A stretch of 64,000 nt of DNA from positions 145,950,001 to 146,014,000 of the forward strand of contig CM059431.1 of NCBI GenBank assembly GCA_030390025.1, in the 5' to 3' direction. Of this stretch, positions 1 through 64,000 are shown piece after piece; within the stretch, counting starts at the first letter, position 1; each line of letters opens with the position of its first letter. This stretch comes from Squalus acanthias (taxonomy: Eukaryota). The translations under genes and the position numbers were made by a program. The notes under the pieces were generated by a model. It had not been told where the DNA came from, did not search any database, and saw only the letters and a program-made list of their open reading frames with translations.

Positions 1-3000
1 TGATTGATATAGGGTTATGGGGAGGGAGCGAGGCAGTTGGAGTAGTTTGGGGTTGATACAGGGTTACGGGGAGAGCGGGGCAGTGGGATTAGTTTTGTAT
101 TGATACAGGGCTATGGGGAGCGAGCGGGACAGTGGGATTAGTTTGGGATTGATACAGGGTTATGGTGGGAGCGGGGCAGTGGAATTAGCTTGGGATTGAT
201 ACAGGGCTATGAGGAGAGAGCGGGGCAAAGGGATTAGTTTTGTATTGATACAGGGCTATGGGGAGAGAGCAGGGTAGTGGGATCAGTTTTGTATTGATAC
301 AGGGTTATGGGGAGAGCGGGGCAGTGGGATTAGTTTGGGATTTATACAGGGCTATTGGGGGAAAGCGGGGCAGTAGGATTAGTTTGGGATTGATACAGGA
401 CTATGGGGGGAGAGCGGGGCAGTAGAAGTAGTTTGGGATTGATACAGGACTATGGGGGGAGAGCGGGCCAGTTGAATTAGTTTGGGATTGATACAGGACT
501 ATGGGGGGAGAGCGGGGCAGTGGGATTAGTTTGTGAATAATACAGGGCTATGGGGAGAGAGAGGGGCAGTGGGATTAGTTTGTGAATAATACAGAGCTAT
601 GGGGAGAGACTAGGTCAGTGGGATTAGTTTGGGATTGATACAGGGCTATGGGGAGAGAGCGGAGTAGTGAGATTAGGTTGGGGTTGATACAGGGCTATGG
701 GGGAGAGCGGGGCAGTGGGATTAATTTGGAATTGTTACAGGTCTATGTAGAGAGAATGGGGCAGTGCAATTATTTTGAGATTGATACAGGGCTATGGGGA
801 AAGAGTGAGGCAGTGGGATCAGTTTGGGATGGATACTGGGTTATGGGGAGAGAGCAGGGCAGTGGGATTACTTTGGGATTGATACAGGGCTATTGGGAGA
901 GAGCGGGGCAATGGGATTAGTTTTGTATTGATACAGGGCTATGGGGAGAGAGCAGGTCAGTGTGATAAGTTTGGGATTGATACAGGGCTATGGGGAGAGA
1001 GTGGAGCCGTGGGATTATTTTGGGATTGATAGAAGGCTATATGGAGAGAGTGAGGCAGTGGGATTAGTTTGGCATTGATACAGGGCTATGTGGAGAGAGT
1101 GAGGCAGTGGGATTAGTTTAGGATGGATACTGATCTACGGGTAGAGACCAAGGCAGTGTAATTAGTTTGGGATTGATACAGGGCTATGGGGAGGGAGCGA
1201 GGCAGTGGGAGTAGTTTGGGATTGATACAGGGTTATGGGCAGAGCGGGAGAGTGGGATTAGATTGGGATTGATACCGGGCTATGGGAAGAGAGCGGTGCA
1301 GTGGAATTAGCTTGGGATTGATACAGGACTATGGGGAGAGAGCGGTGCATTGGAATTAGTTTGGGATTGATACAGGGCTATGAGGAGAGAGCGGGGCAAT
1401 GGGATTAGTTTTGTATTGATACAGGGCTATGGGGAGAGAGCAGGGTAGTGGGATCAGTTTTGTATTGATACAGGGTTATGGGGAGAGCGGGGCAGTGGGA
1501 TTAGTTTGGGATTTATACAGGGCTATTGGGGGAAAGCGGGGCAGTAGGATTAGTTTGGGATTGATACAGGACTATGGGGGGAGAGCGGGGCAGTAGAATT
1601 AGTTTGGGATTGATACAGGACTATGGGGGGAGAGCGGGCCAGTTGAATTAGTTTGGGATTGATACAGGACTATGGGGGGAGAGCGGGGCAGTGGGATTAG
1701 TTTGTGAATAATACAGGGCTATGGGGAGAGAGAGGGGCAGTGGGATTAGTTTGTGAATAATACAGGGCTATGGGGAGAGAGAGGGGCAGTGGGATTAGTT
1801 TGTGATTATACAGAGCTATGGGGAGAGAGTAGGTCAGTGGGATTAGTTTGGGATTGATGCAGGGCTATGGGGGAGAGCGGGGCAGTGGGATTAATTTGGA
1901 ATTGTTACAGGGCTATGTAGAGAGAATGGGGCAGTGGAATTATTTTGAGATTGATACAGGGCTATCGGGATAGCGGGGCTGTGGGATTAGCTTGGGATTG
2001 ATACAAGGCTAAGGGGAGTGAGCAGGACAGTGGGATTAGTTTGGGATTGATAGAGGCCGATGGGGAGAGAGCAGGGCAGTGGGATTAATCTGGTGTTTGC
2101 TACAGGGCTATGGGAGGGGTGGAGCGAACCAGTGGGGTTAGTTTGAGATTGATACAGGGCTATGGGGACAGTGCGATGCAGTGGGAGTAGTTTAGGATTG
2201 ATACAGGGCTATGGGGAGAGAGCGGGGCAATGGGATTAGTTTGGGATTGATACAGGGCTATGGGGATAGAGCGCGGCAATGGGATTAGTTTGGAATTGAT
2301 ACAGGGCTATGGGGTGACAGTTGGGCAGTGGGATTGGTTTGTGATTGATACAGGGCTATGGGGAGAGGGCAGGGCAGTGGGATTAGGTTGTGATTGATAC
2401 ATGGCTCTGGGGAGAGAGCAGGGCAGTTGGCTTAGTTTGGGATTGATACAGGGCTATGGGGTGACAGTTAGGCAGTGGGATTTGTTTGGCATTGATACAG
2501 GTCTCTGGGGAGAGAGCGAGGCATTGTTATCAGTTTGGGATTGCTCCACAGCTCTGGGAGGATAGTGAGGCAGTGGGATTTGTTTGGGATAGATACATGG
2601 CTATGGGAGAGAGAGAGGTAGTGGGATAAATTTGGGATTGGAACAGGGCTATGGGGAGAGAGTGGGGCAGTTGTATTGGTTATGGATTCATTCAATGCTA
2701 TGGGTTGGGAGTGGGGCAGTGGGATTAATTTGGGATTGATACATGGCTATGGGGAGAGAGCTGGGCGGTGGGATTAAATTGGGATTAATACAGGGCTATA
2801 TGCAGAGAGTGGGGCAGTGGGATTAGTTTGTGATTGATACAGGGCGATGGGGAGAGAGCAGGGCAGTGGGATTAATCTGGTGTTTGCTACAGGGCTATGG
2901 GGGTGGGGAGCGAACCAGTGGGGTTAGTTTGAGATTCATACAGGACTATGGGGACAGTGCGATGCAGTGGGAGTAGTTTGGGATTGATACAGGGCTATGG

Positions 3001-3823
3001 GGAGAGAGCGGGGCAATGGGATTAGTTTGGGATTGATACAGGGCTATGGGGAGAGTGCGGGGCAATGGGATTAGTTTGGAATTGATACAGGGCTATGGGG
3101 TGACAGTTGGGCAGTGGGATTAGTTTGGGATTGATACAGGGCTACGGGGAGAGGGAAGGGCAGTGAGATTAGGTTGTGATTGATAGATGGCTCTGGTTAG
3201 AGAGCAGGGCAGTTGGATTAGTTTGGGATTGATACAGGGCTATGGGGTGACTGTTTGGCAGTGGGATTAGTTTGGCATTGATACAGGGCTCTGGGGAGAG
3301 AGCGAGGCATTGTTATCAGTTTGGGATTGCTCCAGAGCTCTGGGGGGATAGTGGGGCAGTGGGATTTGTTTGGGATAGATACATGGCTATGGGGAGAGAG
3401 AGGGGTAGTGGGATAAATTTGGGATTGAAACAGGGCTATGGGGAGAAAGTGGGGCAGTTGTATTGGTTATGGATTCATTCAATGCTATGGGTTGGGAGTG
3501 GGGCAGTGGGATTAGTTTGGGATTGATACATGGCTATGGGGAGAGAGCGGGGCGGTGGGATTAGTTTGGGATTGATACAGGGCTATATGGAGAGAGTGGG
3601 GCAGTGGGATTAGTCTGTGATTGATACAGGGCGATGGGCAGAGAGCAGGGCAGTGGGATTAATCTGGTGTTTGCTACAGGGCTTTGTGGGTGGGGGAGCG
3701 AACCAGTGGGGTTAGTTTGAGATTGATACAGGGCTATGGGGAGAGAGCGGGGCAGTGGAATTAGTTTGGGATTGATACAGGGCTATGGAGAGAGCGGGGC
3801 AGTGGGTTTAGTTTGACATTGAC
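1..3823 (+). repeat. 49-bp G-rich tandem satellite (consensus GGGATTGATACAGGGCTATGGGGAGAGAGCGGGGCAGTGGGATTAGTTT)
   Basis: The unit recurs continuously from the window start to ~3820, with higher-order periods of ~1171 and ~787 bp. Confidence 0.97.
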
Positions 3824-3824
3824 A

Positions 3825-6800
3825 GCCCCACCAAACACAGAGCCAGCGCAGCCTGTCTACCTGTGTCCCCTGGAGTACGACGCTTGGAAGAGGCCACTTG
3901 TTGGGATGGAGGTGGAAAAGGTGAAAGGGACTTATCTGTTAGATAGTGGAGCTTCCAGCACCATAGCCTATTCAGAGAATCCCACAGCCTCACCTCTGTC
4001 TAATGGGGTCCCGTACAGTTTAGTGTGATTCACAGGTAACGAGCAGACTGGCTCGTTCTCAATCCCGCTGTCCATTCATTTAGGGACACTCCACATCAAG
4101 TGGACCTGTGTCCTGATGAAATGGGAGAAAGAGGGGATGGGGATCCTGGGGGCCGACTTTATCACAGGCCACAGGATTTTAGTGGATCTTAGGAACCACT
4201 GTCTGTGGGGAGCATGTGTGGGTAGAGAAAGTGAAGTGGCAGTCATCCCAGGGAAACAGGGCAAGGGAACCTTGTGTACCCTAAAACCTAAGGAAGGTTA
4301 CGACCTCGAGCAAATGGTCAGTAACACTCCGGTGGAGTACCAGGCATTTGTGCGAGCGCACCTCGCAGCATTTGCCACCCACAAGCATGACTGTGGGAGG
4401 GTCAACGGGGTCGAGGTTAGTGTCAGTGGAGACCCCATGACCCGACCACAGAAGCAGTATAACTTCCCCAGGGAGGCAGAAGCAGACATGGAAGCAGCCA
4501 TGGCTGCCTTAGTAAAGCAGAGGGTGCTGAGACCGATAGCCACCCATGTAAACTCCCCACTGTGGCCGGTTAGAAAACCGGACAACTCCTGGAGGGCCAC
4601 AGTGCACTATCGGGTACTCAACCGTAACATCCCCGCCTGTGCACCCACGGTGGCAGCCATTGCCGACCTCATTGGAAGAATCCCAGCATCTGCAACCACC
4701 TTCACAGTGCTGGACATTTCCAACGGGTTTTGGTCCATCCCTTTAAGAAGGGAGGACCAGTACAAGTTCGCCTTCGCGTTTAAAGGCCAACAGTACACCT
4801 GGAATTGCCTACCCCAGGGTTTCCACAATAGCCCCAGCATTTTTCATCAATGCATGGCTAATTGTTTGAAGGGTTTTAGCCGGCCCCGGCAGTTGGTACG
4901 GTATGTGGTTGACCTACTCTTGTTCACCGATGAAGGAGAGGAACACGGTCCACTACTGGCTGAAATGCTGGAGCTGCTCCGGCAAGGAGGCTTCAAGGTA
5001 AACCCTAAGAAGGTACAGATCGGCCAACAGGAAGTAAAATTCCGAGGGCTAACTGTGCGCGCAGGGGAAAGGGCCATCGACAGAGCCAAGAGGGAAGCAG
5101 TGCAGGAGTTACCAGCCCCCAACACAGTCACAGGGGTAAGATCCTTTCTAGGGCTAACTGGGTACTGCAGAGATTTTATTGAGGATTATGCAGCCACAGT
5201 GGCCCCTCTGCTCCGACTCCTACACAAGGGTGTAGAGTGGGCTTGGGACGAGGGTTGCGAGGCAGCATTTGTGAAGCTCAAGAAGGATCTGCAGACCGCA
5301 CCAGCTCTAGGGGCTATTGATGGGGAGAAAGAGTTTTTCCTGGAGGTGGCAGCCAGCGGGGACAGTCTGAGTGCTGTGCTGCTCCAAGAGAGGCACGACA
5401 GGCTGAGACCAGTGGTCTACTCCTCCAGGATACTCACTGATGTGGAGAAGGGCTACTCCAACTGTGAGAGGCACCTCCTCGCCACTTACTGGGCTGTGAA
5501 AAGATCATTGATCTTCACAGGCACACCTCCCATCACCCTGCTCACCCATCACACGCCCACCCAGATGCTCCTAGATGGGAGAATCAAAGATGGGACAGTG
5601 AGCAGTGCCCGCATTGCCCGCTGGACCCTATTTCTCTCCCAGATGGACCGAAGGATAAAAGGTCTCTGTGAGCCGAGGCTCGCAGCCAACCTGATTTACC
5701 CAGGGAACGCCCACCGATGTTCCATTGAAGGGGTATGGGAAGTCAACATAGGTTTTCGGGCCGGGATACACCCCACAGGCCGCAAAATCTATGTGGACGG
5801 TTCGAGCACAGTATCTGCTGGAGAACGACTCACAGGGTGTGGAGACATTGCCTTGGCCATTAGACTACCCAACACCATGAGCGCCCAGCAGGCTGAACTG
5901 TCTGCGGTGGTGTGTGTGGTTGCACACCCCGAGAAGTTCCCTACCCCATACACGATTTGCTCGGACAGCATGTTCACATGCAATTCATGTACGGAGTACC
6001 TGGCCATCTGGTCCCGTCGTGGATACACCTCCGCTGATGGGAGACCCCTCACCATAAAGCCCCTGTTGGAGAAAATCATGTCAGCAGTGGGGGAGGGAGG
6101 GAAGGTCTTTATCCATAAGGTAAAGGCCCACTCTAAGAAAGAGCCCAAGTGGGAAAATAACCACAAGGCAGACGAGCTGGCCAAACAGGGGGCCAGAGAA
6201 GGGGTATTCTGGGACCCGTACCAAAAGGATCCAGTAGCAGCAGTCTGGGCCAGGAGAAGCACACAGGGTGTAGCTTTGGCCCCGGACTTAAAGCAGGCCC
6301 AAGCCCAGGACACAGTCCTCAAGACTGTCCTGAACAGGCTTGAAAAAGGGGAGAAAGTAGAGGGCCCGTATGGCGCAGCAGCCATCACCGTAAAGGAAGG
6401 CATGCTGTTCAGGGGGGAGCAGTGGGTGGTGACACAGCAGCACCGAAGGGAATTCCTCCAACTGGCCCATGAGGGTCCAGGAGCGGGGCATCCCGTGCCT
6501 GAGACCACCTGGCAGCAGGTGGAACAGACAGGATGGTGGCCAGGACTGAGGGAGGATGTCCGCGAGTTCTGTGCAGGCTGCCTAGTGTGTGCTGCTAACA
6601 ACCCAGACCCCCAGAAAAGGAAGGTGTCCATGGGACACATCAGGAGGGTAGAGTGACCATGGCAGTCGATCCAGGTCGACTACATCGGGCCCCTACCCAC
6701 CGCCCAGGGAGGCTTTAAGTACTGCCAAGTCCTGGTGGATGTGTTCTCAAAGTGGGTAGAAGCGTTTCCATGCCGTACTGCTACTGCATTGGGTACGGCT

Positions 6801-8018
6801 AGGATCCTAGTCAGGGAAGTGTTCTCACGGTGGGGACTACCACAGTATGTGGAGTCCGACCAGGGGAGTCATTTTAATGGGCAGGTTATGCAAGAGACCC
6901 TCAGGGTGCTCGGCATAGAGGGGAAATGGCACGTCGCCCACAACTCGCAGTCATGGGGTCCTGTGGAGCGTTTAAACCGTACCATCAAGGAAAGGCTACG
7001 GAAGGAAACGGGAGACTCACCCAAAAGGTGGGAAGAACTCTTACCATTGGTCATAATGGGGATCCGGGCCAGCCAGTCAAAAAGCACGGGGTATTCCCCA
7101 CACGAGCTCATGACTGGCAGGATTATGCGGACCCCCACCCATGTGCTAGCCCCAGTGCTCACGGAAGGGCAGCTCAGGGAGGTGAACCGGGACAGATTGG
7201 TCAGGAATCTGTTGGACCACCTTAAACAGGTCCACTGGCAGGCTGTGAGCAACATGGGAAAGCAGCATCGGAGTAACCGATTGCTGCTGGAACCCCGCAA
7301 GCACCACGAGTGGGAGGTAGGAGACCAGGTCATGGTTAGGAATTTTGCCCGGGTGGGGAGTTTCGAACCACTGTACATGGGGCCCTACCACATTGTGGAC
7401 AAGGCAAGCTCCATGGTCTATGCCATAAAGATGCCCCGCCGTACAAAGTGATGTCACATCAACCAATGCAAGCTGTTTAAACCCGAGAAAAGGGAACAGT
7501 CAGCAAAGGTGGACCACCCTAAAGTTAGAGATCCCCAGCCAGCAGCTGTGGCAGACTCACAGGCTGCAGCGGTGGGGACAGTGGCTTGCATCACAGGAGG
7601 GTACACTCCACCGATTATGTGGGACTCAGGCACACCCACAGTGGCCAGAGTCCTAAGAAGGTCTCCCCGCACACCACGGCCTAAACTGCCGTGGTCACCG
7701 GTGCATCAGTGGGTCAGCCCAAAAGGGGCTGCAACCCGCAAAGGAGTGCCCAAGGCCAGGGAGCGTTCGAAGGTTAGGGATCCCCAGCCTGCAGCCCCAG
7801 GCTGCGGGGAACCCACAGGACAGGACAGGGACTCAGCAGCCACACCAAAGGGGGCAGTGTGCTGTAGCACAGGAGGGGACACTCCCGGGATTGACAGGGA
7901 TTCAGGGAAACCCTCAGTTGTTTTAAGAAGGTCAAGGGTCCTGCGGTACAGGCCACCTTACGCCCAGGCGTGCAGGCTGCTCAGAAGCTGCCCAACGCAG
8001 AGGCCATGCAGGGATTGA
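3825..8018 (+). pseudogene. pol: pol pseudogene (protease LLDSGA, RT, degenerate RNase H tether, RNase H IYVDGS, integrase HHCC/DDE/GPY, C-terminal extension)
   Basis: ORFs 3813-4028, 4116-6656, 6735-7451 and 7509-8018 share one frame, broken by TGA at 4026, 6654 and 7449. RT YVDD is mutated to YVVD, and there is an 18-bp deletion (VYDPAA) in RH relative to ERV2. Confidence 0.95.
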
Positions 8019-10285
8019 CCTGGCCGTCCGGAGACGGGCGGCGAATGTACAGAGTTATAATTTTAGGTGTTTTACACTTTTGGTAGTTTTAAGATTTTAA
8101 GAATTCTAGTTTTAAGGATTTTAGTAAGTAAGTTTTAAAGTTCTCAAGAATCGATCACCCGTCAAGCCAGAGAACCTTCTCGGGACATGGCTGTCTGTTT
8201 TGTGTGTCCCCACAGAGAGGAAATCGGCTTGACAAGGGTTCTGCTCCTGCTCGCCCTGGTAGGGGTGAGCATCGGTGACCGAGGTGACGTGGAGGACTCC
8301 CACATCTATGGGTACTCGGGAGAGAGAGCACCAGTCGTCACTGCAGGGGGTGGCGAGCGGGGAGTGGAGGAGCTCGCCATCTACTTCCACGAGGGAAGGT
8401 GGCCAGGGTGGCTGGGGTCCAACTCTACTAAATACTCCAACCAGCCCGGGTTCACGTACGGGGAGGCCTCCCTCCCATGCCCCAGGGTACAGGTCGTTGC
8501 CACAAGGGTCAGTGTCACCAAGGGGAAATGTGTGTGCCTTACCTGCAAGGGACGAATTCCCCTGAATAGGTGGTGGTGGCTCAGGAAGCTAAGCAGGGAC
8601 GCAGGGGACCATAAAGCCGACTGGGAACGACTAGGGAACGACACCTACCGGACAATCACAGGGACCCATGGGGGAGTGAGTGTGTGTTGGGATAGGTGGT
8701 TGGAGTCGGAACAGGGAGTCTATGTCTGCATGTGGGCATCAGAGAAAGCCTGCCCCACAGGCATATCCATCATCTTCTCCAGACAATGGCAAGATGCTGG
8801 GGAGGGGATGGGGTGAGATTCTAGCCTACATGTGTGCGCGCTCCCACACACCCCTACCCCAGTCAACACCACCGAACTCGTGGCACGCCCCCGAAAGCCC
8901 CTGCCCACGACCACGACCTCACGGACAGTAGTAGAGAGTTGTCCTACCACCACCAGGGGACCAGAGAATGGGTTAGTCCTAGTGCCAACCGAAAAGGTAC
9001 TATACCAGGGGGTACACTATGCAGCAGCTTCAGTAATATTAAACCTTACCGAGGTATACTTACCTAAATGGTGTCCTAAGGAGACAGAACAGCTATACCA
9101 GGCCCTGCTAAAGGAAATGTTTAGAAAATTACATGAATTCGACTTTGCCAACGTGGACAAAGCAGAACTGTACGGATTACACCCTGAGCGCACCATGGGC
9201 ACAGGGAGACAAAGAAGGGGGACCTGGAACGATATTTTCACTACCTACAAAACAGAATCCTCAGTAATAAATAGCCTGGATGACATAGAGCTACAAACAC
9301 AGATAAATGGTTTAAAAACCCAGTTAAGAAAGATCCTAACGGACAGGAACACAGTGGTGGGCTCAGAGCTACACGAGGACCAAGCTATGACGGTCCATCT
9401 ACAAGAGATTATTGCTGAGCTAGTGAGACATGCTAAAACAGTGAATGCACTCATACGGGAGGACAGGAATGCTTCGGATCAGGCTGCATAGAATGAGGTG
9501 TGTGTGCTATACGGGGCATGGTTGCTGGGCGAGGGCCGCAGCAACCTGGAGGATTTAAAACAAGGTTTAGTCCCCTCCTGGATTAGCAACAAACACCTCG
9601 CAGCCCTCCACCTGTTCAGCAATTCGCTGAGCCCGTGTCAGCTCCGTCTAGCCTCTGAAGCCTACCCAGTCCCAGTAGATTGTGGACGTTCCAATCACTC
9701 TATCATGGGGATAGTAGTAAGATGGCCGGTCATGGGTGGGACAGCCCGACCCGCACCGGTATACAGGGTGGAGAACATTGGGATCATTCAAGGAGGTGTA
9801 CATGTCCGTTTTGCAGCGGTCCCACCTTATGTGATAAAGTGGGAGCACGCTATGAGAGGTACTGACCTCTCTGTGTGCCGGAGCCGGGGTTCACACATAA
9901 TACTGTGTCCCCAGCACTTGAACGCCTATCCTAAACCACAGTGTGGGTTTAAAGCTGCTGGCGCTCGACCTATCAACTGTACCATGGAGTAGGCCATGTT
10001 CCCCCACAGGTAGCATTCATCGGGGGTGGGACATATTGTGTCACCACAAGGGCGCCCCACTACCAGCATGGACAGCATTTTTGGTGTCCGGTAAGTGACA
10101 GCAGCTTCTGCTTTAAACCTGAGGCAGAAGTTCAAGTGGCCCAGGAATGGATTGTCCCCATTCCTGAACCCTCAACCGTTCATCTCACTGTAAGGGAAAA
10201 CATTACCAACCTGCAAAACTATGTCACCTTCTTCGGCTATAAAATTCCCCCTCTGCCTGAACACCTTATCGTCTTACTTAAAGCT

Positions 10286-10577
10286 ATGATGTGGAGATGC
10301 CGGTGTTGGACTGGGGTGGACAAATGTGAGAAGTTGCACAACACCAGGTTATAGTCCAACAGCTTTATTTGAAATCACAAGCTTTCGAAGCGCTGCTCCT
10401 TCGTCATAAAGGGCAGTTGGAAAGATTAACTGTAGTCACCTGGCAGTGTTCTCTGACTATATATGCTGTGCCTATATGCATCTTTTCACTTCACCTGACG
10501 AAGGAGCAGCGCTCCGAAAGCTTGTGATTTCAAATAAAGCTGTTGGACTATAACCTGGTGTTGTGCGACTTCTCACA
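10286..10577 (+). mobile_element. Short Penelope-like element (pLTR) insertion with an internal 84-bp inverted repeat
   Basis: 12-bp target duplication TTACTTAAAGCT (10274-10285 / 10578-10589). Inverted arms 10323-10406 and 10496-10579 differ at 2 positions. Contains a hammerhead core and AATAAA. Confidence 0.75.
10491..10527 (+). ncRNA. Minimal type I hammerhead ribozyme motif
   Basis: Helix I TCAC/GTGA, core CTGACGA plus an extra A, helix II GGAGC/GCTCC, GAAA, palindromic AAGCTT, putative cleavage triplet CUU. Confidence 0.65.
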
Positions 10578-10666
10578 TTACTTAAAGCTGTACAGGTATC
10601 ACAAAAGCATTTCTACACCCTAGAACAAAAGACACTCGAGATAGGGGCTGAGATTTCGGCCATCAC

Positions 10667-12471
10667 TGTAGGCTTTGCAAAATCCCCCAGAAACTCAAAC
10701 AGAACCCTAAAGGGGGTGATTTTTGGATTTTTATACGAATTTGGAATGATGCGACCTAAATGAAGGAATTTGATGTCAGAACCTCCGTTTTGGTCATTTT
10801 TAAGGATCAGGGAAGGAAAACCCTGAGGAAAAAGACTTTTGGATGATAAGACACCTTTTAAAAGGGCCATTGGGAAAACCTGCAGTCACAGAAACTCCAC
10901 AGGCTGCAGGAAAGGGTGTGGTGAGGCAGTGGACAGCTTTCGGTTATTGGGACCCAGCCAAGCTGTCAGGGAGATGTTTGCACTGCAATCCAACCAGGGA
11001 GGAAGAGCCTCACCCAAAACCTCAGATACACATCCAAAAATGAATAATCCAAGACCCCTTTTGAAATCCCCAGGCCCACACAGGATGCTAGAAGCCTGAA
11101 AACAATAAAACATCCAGTACACCCATCAACCCATCAAAAACCAATCAGCCAAGCATCTACAGGGACAGATTAACAAGCCCGCCAAAAACCTAAGACAAAA
11201 GGGGCGAGATTTGGCGCGTATGTAAAGGCCCTGCCTAAATGGGAGACATCGAAAGCCATCAGGACAATTTAACACCAAGTTAAATCATCAAAACTTAACG
11301 AGCCCACCAAAACCTAAGACAATGGAATGAACAGGCCTCAACTGAAACCTAAATCACTTCAACACAAAACCGATTTAGTAAAGCGATTTTGTCGCGAAAA
11401 ATACAATGGGCCTGAATGGAATAATTGAGGGGCTATTCCCCCAGCAAACACAGCAAGTTAATCACCGCTACAGAGGGCCACACGACACGAGCAGGAGGAC
11501 AGAGAAGCAGCTAAGCCACGAGGCAGGCAGACCCGAGGCGCGATCGGAGGCAGGGACAGACAAGGCCAGGCAAGGGCTAGAACTGAGACCACGAGCTGGG
11601 AGCGAGTCGGCATCGCTGAACATACGCTCCAGCTCTAGTAGGTACTAGCCAAGGCCACTGGAAGCTGGGAGCGAGTCAGCATCACTCAACCCACAGTCCA
11701 GCTCCAGGAGGTACCGCCCCGACAGGCCTCCAATGCAACAAACCAGCTACAAGAGCCGGCAAGGGCTCCACGAGGTGAACCGACACTCGAAAGTACCGCG
11801 GAAACCAAGGCCCCGCGCAGCAACCAACCACCAGGCAACCATGACCAAGAACCAGACCAACACCAGAAAAAACCGAGGACACGCAAGTTTCCACACTACA
11901 AACTATTCCTGACTTACCCCTGGGTAAGATTTTCCGTTAAAAAACTCTAAACCCTACCTCGAAGGGAGAAAAATTGGGTACTTACCTGATAAAGTCCAAT
12001 ACGCACCTTACCGCGTCTGCGGACAAACCCAAACTGACCTGGAGTGCAGCTGGAGTCTTCCACCACGTCCGGGGTACGGCAGGTCCCAACAATCAAAAAC
12101 CGCAGTGAACCCCGAAATCACAAAATATCTCAACTGTCAAGAACTGTCATTGGTGAGCATTATCCCTGATCCTTTGGAATTGAAACCTAGCTAGACAGTG
12201 GGATTGGGAGGGATAAGGGTTTTTGTATATTGCCAATCTCCCTCGCCTGTACCGTGTGTTCCCCAACCTGTGTTTAGGCATTAAGTGTGTTTTAAGTTTG
12301 TTACCTTTTTCTTTTAATAAAGTCAAAATTCTTTCATCAGAGCCTGTTGTCTGCTGCATCTTTGTTCACAACACCCAAATAAGTCCAAGGTCTAGAACCA
12401 GGGACGTGGGAGCGATTCGAACCGCTCACTGAGTCAGAGGTGAGGCTGGCCCTACTACACCACCCCCTACA
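10667..12471 (+). mobile_element. Solo LTR (LTR-A, 1805 bp) nested in env of ERV1
   Basis: TGTAGG...CCTACA termini, 4-bp TSD TCAC (10663-10666 / 12472-12475), AATAAA at 12316. The 3' half is clearly homologous to the LTR at 13268-14902. Confidence 0.93.
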
Positions 12472-55872: not shown

Positions 55873-56533
55873 TAGGGAGAGGCAGAGAAAGAGTGAGACA
55901 GAGAGAAAGATAGAGACTGAGAGAGAGAGTGTGAGATAGAGAGATAGAGTGAGAGACAGAGAGAGAGAGAGACAGAGAGGGAGACCGCGAGGCAGACAGA
56001 GATATATAGAGAAAGAGATAGAGACAGAGAGAGTGAGACAGAGACGGAGAGAGAGAGACAGGGGCAGAGAGAGAGGAAGAGTGTGAGAAAGACAGAGATG
56101 GAGAGTGAGGAAGAGAGACAGAGAAGGAGACAGAGAGAGCGAGAGATAAAGTGAGAGAGACACAGAGAGAGACATTAAGAGAGAGAAAGACAGCAAGAGA
56201 GAGAGAGACAGAGAGAGAGACAGACAGAGGGAGCGAGACAAAGAGAGATAGAGACAGAGAGAGAGACAAAAAGAGAGAGAGAGAGACCGCGAGAGACAGA
56301 GAGACCGAGAGAGAGAGAGAGACAGAGAGACCGAGAGAGAGAGACCGAGAGAGAGACAGAGAGAGAGAGACAGAGAGACAGAGAGAGAGAGACAGAGAGA
56401 GACAGAAAAAGTTAGAGAGAGACAGAGAGAGAGAGAGACAGAGAGAGAGAAAGACCGAGAGAGGGAGAGGCAGAGACAGAGAGAGAGTCAGAGACGGAGA
56501 GAGAGAGGCAGAGATGGAGAGAGCGAGACCTAG
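49116..56533 (+). repeat. Complex (GA)n/GACA array
   Basis: Same composition; the first part mirrors 29.4-34 kb. Confidence 0.97.
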
Positions 56534-57108
56534 TGTAGAATTCGCAATATATCGCGATTTTATTAATAAGGAGAAAACACAGAGTTTCGTTCAAACAGCT
56601 TTTATTTCAGCAGAATGCTGACAGGTTTAAAGTGGACACAAGCAGCCTGTAAAATGGCCGCCGCACCTCGGGACAGAACATTCTAGACTTTTCAACAGGC
56701 AGACAAGATGGCGTTCCAATAAACATTTGTGCAAGATCGATTAAGAGTCAGCACAGTGAAGATAATACACGAGACATTATGGGTTTGCAGTATACACATA
56801 GATACTGAAATCGGTCTCCCAGGTACAAAGGAAAGCCATTGTACCGAGTAATCAAGGGCCCATCCAAAGACATTAATATGTAAAATCCCAACGACTCTAC
56901 GATGAGAGAGCCGTTAGCAGGTAGTTATACAGGACACTTGGAAGCCCCAAAACCCCTCCAGGGAGAACGCCGACCGATTTAACAATGGGAGAAATATTAA
57001 CAGGTACTCAGACATTTACGAGTAGCCCCGAAACCCATTAAGAACGGAGATCACCCATACAAGACATTTGAGCGCCAGACCCTAAACAAAAGAATGGACA
57101 TTATAGTT

Positions 57109-57140
57109 GGGCGGGAAACGGAAGATTTTTGCACTATAAT
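57109..57140 (+). promoter_or_regulatory. Putative LTR core promoter (GC box + TATA-like)
   Basis: GGGCGG followed 26 nt later by TATAAT. The same arrangement is present in the solo LTRs and in LTR-B (GGCGGG...TATAAT at 13965). Confidence 0.55.
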
Positions 57141-57898
57141 TGCAGGCTCCAAACCGTCCATCTTTCTCTTGCTGCTCTTATCATCGTGGCTGCTCCTGTG
57201 TACTCGTAGTTGGGCTTCTGCTTGCCTGTTGCCTCTTCTGAAAAGACTGTTGAACTTTCTGATCCGTTCGGATCTACCTCGTGTCGCGTAACGAAGACCT
57301 ATATTGGTAACCGGTATCGGAACCAAAAGGCCCGAGAAGAGATGAGATGAGATGAGATGAGAAGAGAGGAAGACCATATCCATCGCCACGGTCAGTAAAT
57401 CCCGACCGCGCCTGTAGGTCGATTAGCCAAGTTTTCCTTGCCAGGAAGACTTCTTCGAACTTGCAAAGAAACATATCGTATCGATGATATTGACAACTGT
57501 GCTCGAAAAGTACCTGTTAAACCAACCAACACAGGTCTTCATCACAGCAGACGTTCCAGCCTGCTAGCCGGAGCAGCAGAAGCAAGTAAACAAGTGGGAC
57601 CAGGAGATCTCCTGACCGACACGTGGGTGCTGCGGTGAAAAACATCCGATCAGCTATTCGGAATTTCTCCGAGTTATCACGAGTGGTGAGCATGAGTCTC
57701 GAGATCCTACGAATCTAGTTTAGGATAGATATTGATAGGGGAGGGTTTAAGGATTAAGGATATTTGTAATGTGTGTCCCTATTTACTTTGTGCCGTTCGT
57801 TCCTCGTTTCCCTAAGATCGACTATATAACTGTTTGTAAGATTGTACTGTCATTAATCTGTGCTTATGACATGTATTTCATAATCTTAAGTATCATGC

Positions 57899-57904
57899 AA
57901 TAAA
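57899..57904 (+). terminator. LTR polyadenylation signal
   Basis: AATAAA is positionally conserved in all five LTRs (12316, 14748, 27946 rc and its duplicate, 57899). Confidence 0.75.
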
Positions 57905-58158
57905 GATTTTCCATTTCGTACCATTCAAACCGAGTCTACATGAGTTTCATCTCCATTACTGCTCTCGCATCTAAGTCCAGTGTCTAGAACCGTAAGGGAG
58001 AGTGATTCGAACCACTCACAGGTGTGTCTAGTGTTCCCAGACTGGCTGGAGACCAGAACAGGCAACAAGGCCTAGACCCGCACTGACATACAGGCTGCAC
58101 AGAGCCGCGTGAATCTCACAGGCTGCGAGACACGCAGGGTCAGAATCCCTTACAGAAA

Positions 58159-59970
58159 ATGGCGACCGCGGCAGGACACTGGCAGCGAGAGGGTAGTGTG
58201 TTAGATTTTGGAATGACTGTACGAAATGTTATGCAGGAAAAGATAGCGGATTATGTGTTTGGAAAGGTTAATCTAACTAAGAAATGGATAAGTGAATTGT
58301 TAGCGGATAAAAGCCCGCTAGAGGCAGCTGAAAGGTGGACAGATAGTAAAGAACATAGAAAGACACTTGAGAAAGCAGTCTGGCTTATGTGTTACAAAAG
58401 GCAGGTTCAGATTTCAAACCAGACCATTACAGCGCTAGTAGCTCGAATCAGTCATTTAGAGGGAGAAATGGATGAGAAGGTTTCTGGAGGGGAGGTGCTC
58501 ATTAAGAATTTAAATGAGTTACACCAAGAAAGCCAGGAAGTCTCCAGTCACCTTAAAACAAGGATAGATTATCTCGAGTGCCAGGTCACTGAGGCGAAGT
58601 TGAATGAAAGCAGGTTAAAGGAGAGATGTAACCGCCAAGCTGCCCAGATAAGAACTCAAGAAGAGAGCTTAACGGGGGTTAGGGCGGCATATAAGTTGGC
58701 CCTTGAGGATAAGTTTCAGGGAGCCGATCATAGCGCCTGCCAAAGGGAGATAGAGCACCTCAAAAAGGCCGTGAACAATGCGAACGGCATGGTGTGCCTT
58801 ATCAATCCGTCGGCACACCAGCCGCTAGTAAGTGAGAGATTTAAAAAATCCCCACCAAGTAAAGCAGAAGAAGTAGTAGCCACTGCGCCCTCCGCTCCAC
58901 CCAGCTATTCGGAAACCTGGGTTAGGGAGGAAGCAATGGAAGAAACAAAAGAGCCCATTGAAAAAGAAGTAGGAAAGGGATCGTTGTATCCAGTAACGGG
59001 TATTAAAAGGGGCCCAAGCAGAAACGGTGGGGAAGAACCGGGGGATCTCCTCGGACAGCTGGTGTTGCCTCACAGTTCACATCAGCTGAGAGCTATGATA
59101 AATCACGTACGGAAGCTGACCGAGGCAGACGACCCTTCCGTACATTTCAGAGAAGTTGAGCAAGCCGCAGCCATTAACGGCTGCGATGATGGGGAAACAG
59201 CAAAAATGCTGCTGTTCTCATTAGACAGCTCGGTCCTTCAGTGTCTCTCAGGCGAGAGCAAGAGGGGAACCAAGAGTTATGAGGAATTAAAGAATGAGGT
59301 CCTGGAAGTGTTGGGGGCGAACGACGAAGGTCCGTTTGCTCGAGTGGGACAGACAGTGCAGATGGAGGGAGAACCCCCGAAGGTTTTTGCCGACAGGCTG
59401 TGGCCGGTATATGAGCGCAGCTGCCTAGGTGCGCCCGAGCGCGAAGATGTGGAAGGCACCGCTTTAACTCATTGGCTTAGGTGCATAATAGCCAACAGTT
59501 TACCAGCCGTCAGAGAGCAGGCAAAAGCATGGTTTGATCCCAATGACCCCAACATTACGGAAGAGTCGGTCTTGAATCGACTCACGTTAGGTTATCGCAA
59601 TATAAGGGGTATGGCAACACGTCCCCTTAAGGGAAGGGTACATGAGGTACGACCCGCAGCCCCGTATCAAAGAGAGTGGCATCAGGAGGGTAATCGCGCC
59701 CCACAGGCAGGTAATGCTTGTTACGGGTGTGGGAAGACAGGGCACTGGCGCAAGCATTGCAGGAACCCTTGGAAGGATTCCAAGGATAAAAATCCCGCGG
59801 TCCGAGCCCAGGCGCCTGTCCCGGCTAAGGAAGCTAGTGCACCCACCCCTCCCGACGACCTCGAAGCAGTGTTAGGAGCCATGCGCAAGCTGGTCTTGAA
59901 TGCGCGTGGACAGGTGGCGGTCGCAACCAGCCCCGTAGGTGCCGCAGGACCGTCTAATAGTACCCCATGA
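58159..59970 (+). CDS. gag: Gag polyprotein (coiled coil, PSAPPSY late domain, capsid-like region, one CCHC knuckle)
   Basis: 603-aa ORF between the PBS and pol; CYGCGKTGHWRKHC at 59719-59760. The true start could be the second ATG at ~58213. Confidence 0.93.
   Translation: MATAAGHWQREGSVLDFGMTVRNVMQEKIADYVFGKVNLTKKWISELLADKSPLEAAERWTDSKEHRKTLEKAVWLMCYKRQVQISNQTITALVARISHLEGEMDEKVSGGEVLIKNLNELHQESQEVSSHLKTRIDYLECQVTEAKLNESRLKERCNRQAAQIRTQEESLTGVRAAYKLALEDKFQGADHSACQREIEHLKKAVNNANGMVCLINPSAHQPLVSERFKKSPPSKAEEVVATAPSAPPSYSETWVREEAMEETKEPIEKEVGKGSLYPVTGIKRGPSRNGGEEPGDLLGQLVLPHSSHQLRAMINHVRKLTEADDPSVHFREVEQAAAINGCDDGETAKMLLFSLDSSVLQCLSGESKRGTKSYEELKNEVLEVLGANDEGPFARVGQTVQMEGEPPKVFADRLWPVYERSCLGAPEREDVEGTALTHWLRCIIANSLPAVREQAKAWFDPNDPNITEESVLNRLTLGYRNIRGMATRPLKGRVHEVRPAAPYQREWHQEGNRAPQAGNACYGCGKTGHWRKHCRNPWKDSKDKNPAVRAQAPVPAKEASAPTPPDDLEAVLGAMRKLVLNARGQVAVATSPVGAAGPSNSTP
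58160..58177 (+). promoter_or_regulatory. Primer binding site, tRNA-Arg(TCG)
   Basis: TGGCGACCGCGGCAGGAC, 5 nt after the LTR end. It is complementary to ...GUCCUGCCGCGGUCG-CCA, the 3' end of a vertebrate tRNA-Arg(UCG) as I recall it. Confidence 0.85.
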
Positions 59971-62900
59971 CTAGAACCGGCGCAGCCCGTCTACCTGTGT
60001 CCGCTTAGCTATGATGCGTGGAGGCGACCTGTGGTGGAGATGGAGGTAGAGAAACAGAAGGGTAGTTATTTGTTGGACACGGGAGCTTCTTGCACCATAA
60101 TCCATACAGATAACCCTTTTGACTCGCCGCTATCTACCAAGGTCCCATTCACGTTAGCAGGGTTCACAGGAAAAGAACAGGCTGGCACGTTTTCCCTTCC
60201 GCTATCCATTCGTTTAGGAACACTTCGCCTTAAGTGGAAGTGTATACTGATGGCATGGCAAAAAGGGGGTGGAAGAGGTATTCTCGGGTCTGATCTCCTA
60301 GCGGGACACGGGATCCTCGTGGACCTCAGAAATCACTGTCTCTGGGGGGCTAAAGGTGAAAAAGGCGAGGTAATAGTGATTCCGGGGGAGGAAGAAACAG
60401 GGGTCCTGTGTACCGTACAGCCATCCGGAGGCTACGACCTCAGGCTTATGGTCGCAGATGTCCCAACGGACATGCAAACGTACGTGTCAGATAATATGCA
60501 CGCGTTTGCAACCCACAAGCACGATTGTGGGAGAGTGGTCGGGTTTGAGGTCAGCGTAGATGGGGACCCCATGACCCGACCCCAAAAGCAGTATAACTTC
60601 CCCAAAGAAGCAGAACCCGATATGGAGACAGCAATGTCTTCCTTGGTGCAGCAGGGCGTGTTGAGGCCGATAGCCACACACGTGAACTCCCCATTATGGC
60701 CGGTTAGGAAGCCGGATAATTCGTGGAGAGCCACGGTGGACTACAGAGTCCTTAACAGTAACATTCTCGCCTGCGCGCCCACAGTAGCAGCAGTTGCTGA
60801 CCTAATAGGGAGCATCCCAGCGTCCGCGACCACGTTCACGGTGCTGGATATCTCGAACGGTTTTTGGTCCATCCCGCTGCGGCGAGAGGACCAGTACAAG
60901 TTTGCCTTTACTTTCAAAGGGCAACAGTACACGTGGAACTGTCTGCCACAGGGTTTCCACAATAGCCCCAGTATTTTTCATCAGTGTATGGCAGGAAGTT
61001 TAAAGGAGTTTAGTCAGCCCAATCAGATAGTACAGTATGTGGATGATTTGCTCCTATTTACGGACTCAAGGGAGGAGCACGGACCACTACTGGACGAGTT
61101 ATTGGAGCTGTTAGCGAGAAAGGGTTTTAAAATAAACCCTAAGAAAGCACGTATCGGTCAGCGGGAAGTAAAATTCCTGGGATTGACCATACGCGCTGGG
61201 GAAAGAGCCATAGACAAAGCAAGGAGGGAGTCGGTGCAAGAATTACCGATTCCCAACAACGTAAGGGGTGTGAGGTCCTTCTTGGGACTGACCGGTTACT
61301 GCAGGGATTTTATCGAAGACGATGCGGCCACAGCGGCGCCGCTCCTCCGACTCCTCCATAAGGGGGTGGAGTGGCTTTGGGACGAGAGCTGCCAAGCAGC
61401 CTTCGAGAAGTTAAAAAGGGATCTGCAAACCGCGCCAGCCTTAGGGGCCATAGATGGGGGGAAGGAGTTTTTCCTGGAGGTAGCTGCCAGCGGAGACAGC
61501 TTAAGCGCCGTGCTGCTCCAAGAGCGTCACGGCAAGCTGAGGCCGGTTGTCTATTCATCCAGGGTGTTAACGGATGTGGAGAGAAGTTTCTCCAATTGCG
61601 AAAGGCACCTTTTAGCCACGCATTGGGCTGTGAAAAGATCAGCGATCTTCACAGGGCTCTCTCCCATCACTCTCCTCACACATCACACACCAACTAAGAT
61701 GCTTCTGGATGGGAGGATTAAAGACGGGACCGTAAGCAGCGCACGCATTGCGCGTTGGACCCTTCTCCTCTCCCAGTTGGATCTTAGAGTGAAAGGTCTT
61801 TGCGAGCCAAGGCTTGCGGCCAATTTGGCATACCCCGGTACAGCCCACCGGTGTTCGGTGGAAGGGGTGTGGGACGTCAACATAGGTTTACGGGCCGGGA
61901 TACATCCCACTGGGCGCGAGATTTATGTTGATGGGTCTAGCACAGTATCCGCTGGCGAGCGACTCACAGGGTGTGGAGTTTATGACCCTGCGGCAGACCT
62001 TGCCCTGGCGATCAAGCTCCCTAGCACCATGAGCGCGCAGCAAGCCGAGCTGTCTGCCGTGGTGTACGTTGTGACCCACCCAGACATTTTCCCAACCCCA
62101 TACACGATTTGCTCGGACAGTATGTTCACCTGCAATTCGTGTACGGAATACCTGGCCATTTGGTCCCGCCGCGGATACACCTCCGCGGACGGGCGACCTT
62201 TAACGGTGAAGCCCTTGCTGGAAAAGATCTTAGCAGCAGCAGTAGGGGAGGAAGGAGAGATTTTCATCCATAAGGTGAAAGCTCACTCCTCCACAGAGCC
62301 CCGTGGGGAGGGCAACCGGCAGGCGGATGCGCTAGCCAGGGAAGGTGCCCGCGACGGCACTTTCTGGAACCCCTATAGGACCGGACCCATAGCAGCGGTC
62401 CGAGGCGGGGACGGGAATCCCGGGAACACCAGGGTAGCATTGCCCCTAGACCTTAAGACCGTCCAAACCCAGGATCCCGCCCTAAAAGCAGTCCTAAAAA
62501 CGATTGCTGAGGGGAGGCAGGTAGAAGGTCCGTACAGTACGGCAACCCTCTCAGTTAAGGAAGGCATGCTGTTCCGCGAGGAGCAGTGGGTTGTGCCGCA
62601 GCAGCACAGGAGGGAATTCCTCCAGTTGGCTCACGAGGGACCAGGGGCAGGGCACCCCGGGCCCGAGGTTACCTGGCAACGGGTAGAGCAAGCGGGATGG
62701 TGGCCAGGGCTCAGGGAACAAGTCCGCGAGTTCTGTGCAAGCTGTCTTGTGTGCGCTGCAAACAACCCAGACCCCCAGAAAAGGAAGGTGCCCATGGGAC
62801 ACGTAAGAAGGGTAGAGGGACCATGGCAGTCGATACAGATCGACTATATAGGACCCCTGCCCACCACCCAGGGAGGTTATAAGTATTGCCTCGTCCTGGT

Positions 62901-64000
62901 GGATGTGTTTTCCAAGTGGGTGGAAGCCTTCCCTTGTCGAACAGCTACGGCACTGGGTACAGCAAAAATCTTGGTCCGGGAAGTGTTCTCGCGGTGGGGA
63001 CTTCCCCGTTTTGTGGAGTCAGACCAAGGGAGTCATTTCACCGGCCAGGTGATGCAGAACACCCTCATGCTTTTGGGCATTGAAGGGAAGTGGCACGTAG
63101 CACACAATCCCCAGTCATCCGGGATTGTTGAACGTATGAACCGGACCCTGAAGGAGAAATTGAGGAAAGAGACTAGGAACTCGCCCCAAAAATGGGCGGA
63201 GGTTCTGCCTTTAGTCCTCATGGGGGTCCGGGCCAGTCAGTCAAAAAGTACGGGGTACTCCCCGCACGAGGTAATGACCGGGAGGCTCATGCAAACCCCC
63301 ACCCATGTGCTAGCACCGGTGCTCACTGAGGGTCAGCTCCAAGAGATAAGCAGGGACAAGTTCGCCCAGACTCTCTTGGAGCGCCTGAAGCAGGTTTATG
63401 AGCAGACGGCTGGGAACATGGGAAGGCAGCATCAGGGCAATCGCTTGTTGCTGGAACCCCGCAAAACGCGGGAGTGGGAAGTGGGAGACCAGGTCATGGT
63501 CAGAAACTACGCCAGAGTAGGGAGTCTGGAACCACTGTATATGGGACCCTACAACATTGTAGACAAGGCGAGTCCCATGGTTTACGCCGTAAAAGTACCT
63601 CGGCGCACTAAGTGGTTCCACATAAACCAATGCAAACTATACCAGCCAGGTGCGCAAGGGAAAACTACAGGGGTAAATCCCGCCAATGGGAAAGCACAGC
63701 CCCAGGTAGGACCACAAGGCACACAGGCAGGCATAGCAGCTTGCATCAGGGGAAGGGACATCCCGGACGATCATGCAGCGTTTTTCTGGAATTGGGGGTT
63801 AGATGAGGAAGAATTCAGGGTACCCGGGTCAGATGAGGATAGTGCAGATGAGAATAGTGATGACGACGGGTGGTTCCTGAGGAACGGTCTGGAGGGAATG
63901 GGGGCTGTAGGTAGAGATCCACACAGGGTGGACACCCAAGCTGCAGGTCTCGAAGACAGGAGGGAGGAGCTAGAGGAGGCAGGGCCAGCCGCTATGGGAG
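59971..64000 (+). CDS. pol: Pol polyprotein (PR-RT-tether-RH-IN-extension), 3'-partial, probably made by readthrough of the gag UGA
   Basis: Same frame as gag. DTG at 60076, YVDD at 61036, IYVDGS at 61921, HX6H...CX2C, QIDYIGP/ESDQGS/VERMN, GPY. It is absent from the ORF track, consistent with no stop before the window end. Confidence 0.94.

Follow-up and report, generated by a model that had tools for sequence, protein, structure and literature searches.

The 64,000-nucleotide (nt) stretch of Squalus acanthias DNA analyzed here (contig CM059431.1, positions 145,950,001 to 146,014,000; hereafter the window, in whose numbering all coordinates are given) contains an endogenous retrovirus (ERV) in which gag and pol lie in one frame and are split by one in-frame TGA, followed by CTAG. 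On the comparison of copies and relatives, the stop is inherited and is not a private mutation, and Pol is very probably made by readthrough of this UGA. We conclude that the junction is real and inherited; the UGA-CUAG signal in a retrovirus, for which we found no earlier report, and the predicted hairpin behind it appear to be new, whereas retroviral readthrough and UGA junctions as such are known.

A single in-frame UGA-CUAG separates gag and pol

The features at the junction are as follows.

58159 to 59970, + strand: gag open reading frame, 603 amino acids (aa) from the first ATG; Met shared with relatives at 58231; single CCHC knuckle at about 59716 to 59763
59968 to 59974, + strand: UGA stop in CUAG context, in frame; the A at -1 (59967) is likewise invariant, and no alternative letter occurs at 59967 to 59975 in four of four runs
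59971 to 63999, + strand: pol open reading frame, open at the window end, with protease, reverse transcriptase (RT), tether, RNase H, and integrase; first Met at 60040 (residue 24)

The junction reads CCA (59965 to 59967), TGA (59968 to 59970), CTA (59971 to 59973), and GAA (59974 to 59976). Upstream, the gag frame has no stop from 58087 up to the one ending at 59970 (627 aa from stop to stop); downstream, the same frame remains open from 59971 as far as the window's end (1343 aa), and around the junction the remaining two frames are closed. The first-pass annotation, which was made from the letters alone, had described a single in-frame UGA in a UGA-CUAG context with pol continuing into the protease, and this description is exact by coordinates and frames. 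The 7-mer TGACTAG occurs 2 times in the window versus 8.5 in shuffles, a raw count that is uninformative in a stretch made up mostly of microsatellite. CTA accounts for 14 of the 1343 pol codons, and the chance of TGA, CTA, and G coinciding at a gag stop is about 0.1 to 0.2%, for a context chosen post hoc.

The stop is shared by other copies and by relatives

Twenty runs, from eight studies and five organisms, contained roughly half the words in 58200 to 61200 or more. The contigs (and contigs only) of four of these runs, X2, X16, X18, and X19, were compared over 59821 to 60120; within the hairpin region described below they cover 59971 to 60032, with 60033 to 60120 lacking cover. The motif was kept in all nine contigs that span the stop, which come from three other organisms (four of four in X16, three of three in X18, and two of two in X19). 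For these counts the depth sums agree with the listed pieces, and eight of the nine contigs pass the 31-letter bridging rule. Some of the contigs are divergent, differing from the window at 18 places over 104 nt or at 20 places, with 3 gaps besides, over 169 nt (approximately 83% and 88% alike, respectively), and places beside the motif vary among copies (59962, 59966, 59976, 59979, and 59982). In the 287 contigs of X2, no variant of at least 2% occurs at 59967 to 59975, rarer ones being unlisted. The longest invariant run nearby is the 9-nt run that contains the motif. Conservation of TGACTAG across family copies, which the first-pass annotation had proposed as a check, is thus borne out in nine of nine contigs with varying neighbors, and the sense codon that it had named as a possible refutation is found in none of them.

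The Gag relatives P0104, P0105, and P0106 (38–50% identity) were compared as proteins, apart from the DNA context of their stops, and their C-termini lie within one residue of the window stop (partly by eye). The common variant at 59966 changes the last Gag residue to Gln, the same residue as in two of these relatives.

Several observations weigh against so firm a reading of the inheritance. By position alone, invariance of the seven given places is not significant (P = 0.14), with 25 of 103 nearby places varying. Three of the nine contigs have their loose end at the same point, 60002, and probably represent a single locus in three organisms; these organisms also have at least half of the words in common, so the contigs are not nine independent events. 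Contigs also drop rare variants. Finally, the coelacanth model P0005, a more distant relative, joins a weak Gag-like part (25% over 116 aa) to Pol with no stop; its continuity may reflect a fused relative or a gene-model artefact. The loose end at 60002 that is common to X16, X18, and X19 probably marks one old copy, truncated 32 nt past the stop, that these organisms have by common descent.

A second copy in the window bears on the same question.

3822 to 10350, + strand: second, decayed family copy with pol and env-like remains and no gag; 74.7% alike over 3675 nt; stops within pol

In this copy the 18 nt before the Pro-Ala-Gln codons match an X2 loose end at 16 of 18 places (by eye, in two records), the loose end lying four codons further away. 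On this alignment the second copy is more likely to have lost 12 nt across the place of the junction stop. We rejected it as a sense-codon counter-example: it has an apparent 12-nt loss over the stop, no gag, and stops in pol. The copy is also interrupted by satellite at its gag-pol junction.

The lack of a stop before the protease in that copy, the continuity of P0005, and the annotation of 9 of the 23 displayed entries for lokiretroviruses (PMC7947760, Dataset S1) as fused gag-pol, which places those entries outside the junction reading given below, are what could be expected had the stop arisen as a nonsense mutation in an ancestral fused gag-pol, either private or spread by a defective sublineage. 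Against this stand the unchanged motif in nine of nine contigs from three other organisms, the end of Gag at the same place at 38–50% identity, and the apparent 12-nt loss across the junction in a copy that lacks gag and whose pol contains stops. We regard this origin as highly improbable, and in its private form we rejected it as largely refuted by the contigs and by the ends of the Gag relatives.

Pol is best explained by readthrough

With the stop taken as inherited, the absence of a Met before the protease, a mediocre splice acceptor, and the absence of a slippery site make readthrough the best explanation of how Pol would be made. The first Met after the stop is pol residue 24, the DTG is at residue 36, and the Pfam protease match begins at residue 17. 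Ahead of that first Met, the 10 residues that follow CTA do not differ between the element and the second window copy, and their conservation implies translation from upstream. Selection of the CUAG context for readthrough is probable; as a readthrough signal, UGA followed by CUAG has been tested, and position -1 favors a purine (PMC4132726). No RNA datasets were among the matches listed, which have no bearing on expression.

We propose that the unspliced RNA of the element would yield mostly Gag, with the UGA weakened by its CUAG context and the A at -1, and that in a minority of passes a near-cognate tRNA would decode the UGA and the ribosome would go on to make Gag-Pol. A long hairpin beginning about 10 nt after the stop may increase the rate, as in alphaviruses. 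The residue inserted at such a UGA would presumably be Trp, Cys, or Arg.

Initiation downstream of the stop, a frameshift, or selenocysteine insertion at the UGA would each provide another route, and we consider this group very improbable. The Met at pol residue 24 also occurs in the second copy and in P0001, as reinitiation or internal initiation could use; however, it lies 12 residues before the catalytic Asp and falls within the Pfam protease match; a start there would cost the protease its N-terminal strand, judging from retroviral protease anatomy. A frameshift is opposed by the shared frame and by the absence of any slippery heptamer in 59700 to 60100. For selenocysteine, a search of 56500 to 64000 against Rfam gave no selenocysteine insertion sequence (SECIS) element or other family above threshold, with two matches that were both under their gathering scores.

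A spliced pol mRNA in the style of foamy viruses, with the AG of CUAG as acceptor and a start codon from an upstream exon, was another refutation foreseen by the first-pass annotation, and it finds little support. The end of the motif does have the YAG form, spumaviruses start pol separately (PMC8278194), and the lineage falls among deep-branching retroviruses. Nevertheless, only 6 of the 12 upstream positions are pyrimidines, the acceptor ranks 131 of 532 AG sites (80 ties), the branch-point-like word at 59954 to 59958 varies among copies (at 59955 and 59958), and the AG is absent from three of the seven lokiretrovirus junctions that keep UGA-CUA. Splicing would, moreover, require neither a UGA stop nor a shared gag/pol frame. 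We judge this route very unlikely.

A long hairpin is predicted behind the stop

Two features follow the stop.

59971 to 59979, + strand: 9-nt spacer between the stop and the predicted hairpin; the first pairs with p > 0.9 begin at 59980, and minimum-energy folds put weaker pairs within the spacer
59980 to 60186, + strand: predicted extended stem-loop of 207 nt, a candidate readthrough stimulator (z -5.3 to -6.2)

The folding programs used make no pseudoknot prediction. For the 200 nt after the stop the z score was -6.2, the lowest of 57 windows across gag-pol (the next was -5.2). Compared with synonymous recoding the z score was -4.4, with none of 300 recodings equally stable and the lowest value of 37 pol windows, and the basal pairs mostly kept p > 0.9 when folded in longer context. 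The fold emerges only at about 200 nt: windows of 40–100 nt behind the stop gave nothing beyond shuffles (z -1 to +0.6). The downstream folding suggested by the first-pass annotation thus gave nothing at the shorter lengths and a hairpin at the longer one, the covariation of which is not significant. On the basis of the predicted hairpin 3′ of the stop, the signal may consist of context plus structure.

The second copy supports the structure in part. Its joint fold with the main copy was better than 196 of 200 codon-column shuffles, and the basal helices are retained. Counting against a conserved structure, the second copy has a similar fold topology with a z score of only -0.4 to -1.2, it keeps 49 of 67 hairpin pairs versus 44.2 expected (p 0.065), and the compensatory pairs number 4 versus 2.3 expected (p 0.20), so that covariation is not significant; in addition, third positions are conserved at 21 of 47 places in the hairpin versus 489 of 863 in the rest of pol, with 6 of 7 conserved in the 5′ basal arm. 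Contig variants in 59971 to 60032 fall at four places, three unpaired and one preserving a wobble pair, and are uninformative on the hairpin.

In alphaviruses, stems with an 8–9 nt spacer stimulate readthrough 3- to 14-fold and have comparative and mutational support; for Venezuelan equine encephalitis virus (VEEV) the spacer is 8–9 nt and the stimulation 10- to 14-fold (PMC3159437). From the folding models, we put the case that the element's hairpin stimulates readthrough at slightly short of an even call. It is also conceivable, and a possibility that we take seriously, that readthrough is real through the local context alone and that the hairpin, if more than incidental, acts in packaging or dimerization, a role suggested by the very short leader before gag. 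In four mammalian genes, 12 nt past the stop suffice (PMC4132726), UGACUA needs structure only conditionally (PMC13517186, section 2.5), the covariation of the hairpin is not significant, and z scores of -4 to -5 are reached by other windows of the element. Conversely, the strongest of the 57 folds comes next after the stop, at an alphavirus-like spacing, the second copy retains its basal helices, and of 200 codon-column shuffles 196 do worse than the joint fold.

Anatomy and lineage of the element

Two further features precede gag.

56534 to 58154, + strand: 5′ long terminal repeat (LTR), 1621 bp; ends placed by comparison with the window's two solo-LTR-like copies, which are 81% alike
58160 to 58177, + strand: putative primer binding site, 5 nt past the LTR; overlaps the first gag ATG at 58159

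An LTR, a primer binding site, and a gag with a CCHC knuckle are all present, as expected of an endogenous retrovirus, although the knuckle is weak (zf-CCHC match, E 0.3). The Pol domain order of protease, RT, tether, RNase H, and integrase, with a dual RNase H, fits Retroviridae; the DTG of the protease is at 60076 (Pfam match weak, E 7e-4), RT at about 60703 to 61191, RNase H at about 61918 to 62349, and the integrase core at about 62821 to 63111. The main copy runs past the window end before any env or 3′ LTR. Pol extends beyond the integrase (63640 to 63999) as a long tail that includes an acidic stretch and is still open where the window ends; the tail of the second copy is unrelated and basic. 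The leader (58154 to 58231) is very short, with the putative primer binding site overlapping the first gag ATG. Residues derived from this site also open the relatives P0104 and P0106, and the second Met, at 58231, is common to all relatives. The site presumably resembles the 3′ end of vertebrate tRNA-Arg(UCG), a possible near-cognate of UGA.

By sequence comparison the element is a multi-copy ERV whose lineage, among the vertebrate retroviruses, is unclassified; it has relatives in skate, frogs, and coelacanth. The best Pol relatives, from 103 matches, were one protein, 80% alike, and models from frog and coelacanth at 44–46%; the Gag relatives P0104, P0105, and P0106 were 50%, 44–45%, and 38% identical, respectively, the first being a skate protein. 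RT is 44% identical to P0011, which is snakehead retrovirus (SnRV) and the closest named virus found, and 35–43% identical to epsilon- or gamma-like matches (labels from Pfam and names). In a tree of RT built on 21 rows selected out of 105, the element falls inside the retroviruses on a 99/98 branch with SnRV and vertebrate ERV matches, apart from Ty3/gypsy; the branch holds a polytomy of the element with SnRV, frog and coelacanth ERVs, and others, and the SnRV grouping, which the tree does not recover, is not rejected by the approximately unbiased (AU) test (p 0.14). A 48-row tree set apart the gypsy-like rows together with P0026 (96/96). P0011 and P0026, the latter of lokiretrovirus (Loki) type, were each recognized by motifs in the PMC7947760 supplement. 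Membership in the lokiretroviruses was rejected: the 99/98 branch separates the RT (AU p 0.0455, borderline, with P0026 as the one Loki-type row). None of the Loki RT signature words occurs in the element's RT. Scans for relatives' DNA in viral contigs, prokaryote genomes, and metagenomes (80 of 538 loci) gave no junction, with protease or junction DNA matched by 0 of 90 loci and a best RT identity of 33%; among the viral contigs there was no confirmed relative, and 10 pattern matches arose by chance.

Other copies and repeats in the window

Two LTR-like copies lie between the retroviral pieces.

27715 to 29384, - strand: solo-LTR-like copy, 80.7% alike to the 5′ LTR
47446 to 49115, - strand: solo-LTR-like copy, 81.0% alike to the 5′ LTR and 98.8% to the other solo copy

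Both are 1670 bp long with identical flanks within GA microsatellite, and perhaps they represent one insertion duplicated along with the GA array. In the second copy, the env-like remains include a signal-like stretch and an RQRR site (by eye); none of the four broken pieces had a Pfam match, the paramyxovirus fusion protein (PF00523), which the Env of lokiretroviruses resembles, included. A self-inverted 257-nt insert with 82% alike arms (10323 to 10579) breaks this env-like region and resembles two shark-type short interspersed element tails, back to back. Direct repeats at 11832 to 12471 and 14280 to 14902 (approximately 640 nt, 74.6% alike) are unlike the LTR of the main element. The retroviral pieces are surrounded by purine-rich satellite (1 to 3820) and approximately 40 kb of GA-rich simple repeat (about 15000 to 56500).

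Novelty and implications

We found no literature report of UGA-CUA at a retroviral gag-pol junction, although papers behind subscriptions, figures, supplements to preprints, and entries in repeat databases may note the motif; the available parts of PMC12440569 and PMC10435555 hold nothing further on junctions. The finding is not surprising in kind, as gag-pol readthrough is textbook material and UGA junctions are known. Nevertheless, how deep-branching retroviruses set the ratio of Gag to Gag-Pol is almost unknown, and a 2026 review, whose section 4.1 names no retrovirus with UGA-CUA, regards readthrough as unverified even among the epsilonretroviruses (PMC13517186). The junction connects the retroviral, alphaviral, and host-gene classes of readthrough. 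For annotation, such a stop is not to be scored as a defect, and the start of Pol is not to be placed at the first Met.

Comparison with known readthrough systems

Moloney murine leukemia virus (MoMLV) and WDSV (walleye dermal sarcoma virus) have gag and pol in one frame interrupted by one stop, which lies between the knuckle of the nucleocapsid and the DTG of the protease (PMC13517186, section 4.1), and the element shares this arrangement with these gamma- and epsilonretroviruses. Theirs is UAG-G, the type III context, with a compact pseudoknot in MoMLV, whereas the element has UGA-CUAG, outside that context, and a predicted 207-nt hairpin. In the group of SnRV and the clade Huo ERVs, including the elephant shark CmiERV lineage I, SnRV is the closest named virus found by RT (44%), and SnRV-like ERVs occur in cartilaginous fish (PMC4422223) and across vertebrates (PMC6001957); SnRV differs in its junction, UAGGGC (PMC13517186), and its grouping with the element has the p-AU of 0.14 given above.

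The first-pass annotation had contrasted UGA-C with the UAG of gamma- and epsilonretroviruses, an overstatement in that UGA retroviral junctions are already published: SSSV (salmon swim bladder sarcoma virus) has UGAAGA, the zebrafish virus ZFERV has UGACGA, and a frog ERV has UGAAGU (PMC13517186, section 4.1.2), and XtERV-S has a TGA between gag and pol (PMC8278194). All four resemble the element in having an in-frame UGA between gag and pol with readthrough presumed. In SSSV, ZFERV, and the frog ERV the context is not CUA, and in the sections cited no stimulatory structure is described for these aquatic viruses.

The 7-mer UGA-CUAG is identical in the vertebrate genes OPRL1, OPRK1, AQP4, MAPK10, and MDH1. 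The CUAG readthrough motif is conserved throughout vertebrates (PMC4132726), and the host ribosome should therefore respond to it. Unlike the element's proposed signal, these genes need no downstream structure, and they yield short C-terminal extensions. The first-pass annotation had assigned Pol to opal suppression by a host-type motif; readthrough remains the likeliest route, whereas "host-type" was an overstatement, the motif being viral also. UGA-CUA-G occurs in O'nyong-nyong virus and UGA-CUA in Sindbis virus and PSIV, while VEEV has UGA-CGG (PMC13517186, Table 1).

Type II (Beier-Grimm) readthrough is defined by UGA followed by CUA or CGG (PMC13517186, section 2.5), the context present in the element. 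For the conserved 3′ stem-loop of this type, the element offers a strong fold in one copy and weak support from two. The extended stem-loops of alphaviruses span 126–177 nt and start at +12 to +16 (PMC13517186); by equal count the element's stem starts at +13. The alphaviruses belong to another virus order, and the element's stem rests on folding energy and weak conservation.

The lokiretroviruses (Wang and Han 2020, PMC7947760) resemble the element in their dual RNase H and, at seven junctions, in having UGA-CUA-G or UGA-CUA-A at the end of gag (read by eye). Dataset S1 of that study provides 24 consensuses, of which 23 are displayed and 7 have a separately annotated gag. In six of these seven, UGA-CUA ends gag (frames by eye), followed by G in Ofa, Pyo, and Sau and by A in Bsp, Dcl, and Lro; the Bsp stop is in frame with a conserved stretch, the consensus shifting frame further on. 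The seventh, Tfu, shows X and then Leu-Ser, as protein only. Cne, for which only pol is annotated, has UGA-CUA-G too. Because a search for the motif was what brought up four of the seven UGA-CUA junctions, the count free of this bias is the six of seven with a separately annotated gag. The main text, by keyword search, has no mention of stop codons or readthrough. Together, the element's junction and the seven Loki junctions make cheap, directly testable cassettes. It is conceivable, although we consider it rather doubtful, that alphavirus-style type II readthrough is a third, overlooked route to retroviral Pol, common to the element's cartilaginous-fish-associated lineage and many lokiretroviruses, and maybe the ancestral gag-pol signal, the lokiretroviruses being the sister group of all other retroviruses. 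If so, the UAG-pseudoknot, frameshift, and spliced strategies would have arisen from an ancestral type II signal; the alternative is repeated convergence. The flanks of the Loki junctions displayed are unrelated to those of the element, and the published Loki screen was positive in none of three Orectolobiformes genomes, with no cartilaginous fish among the hosts that it lists. The element's RT, only 36% identical to the Loki-type protein, falls on the other side of the 99/98 branch.

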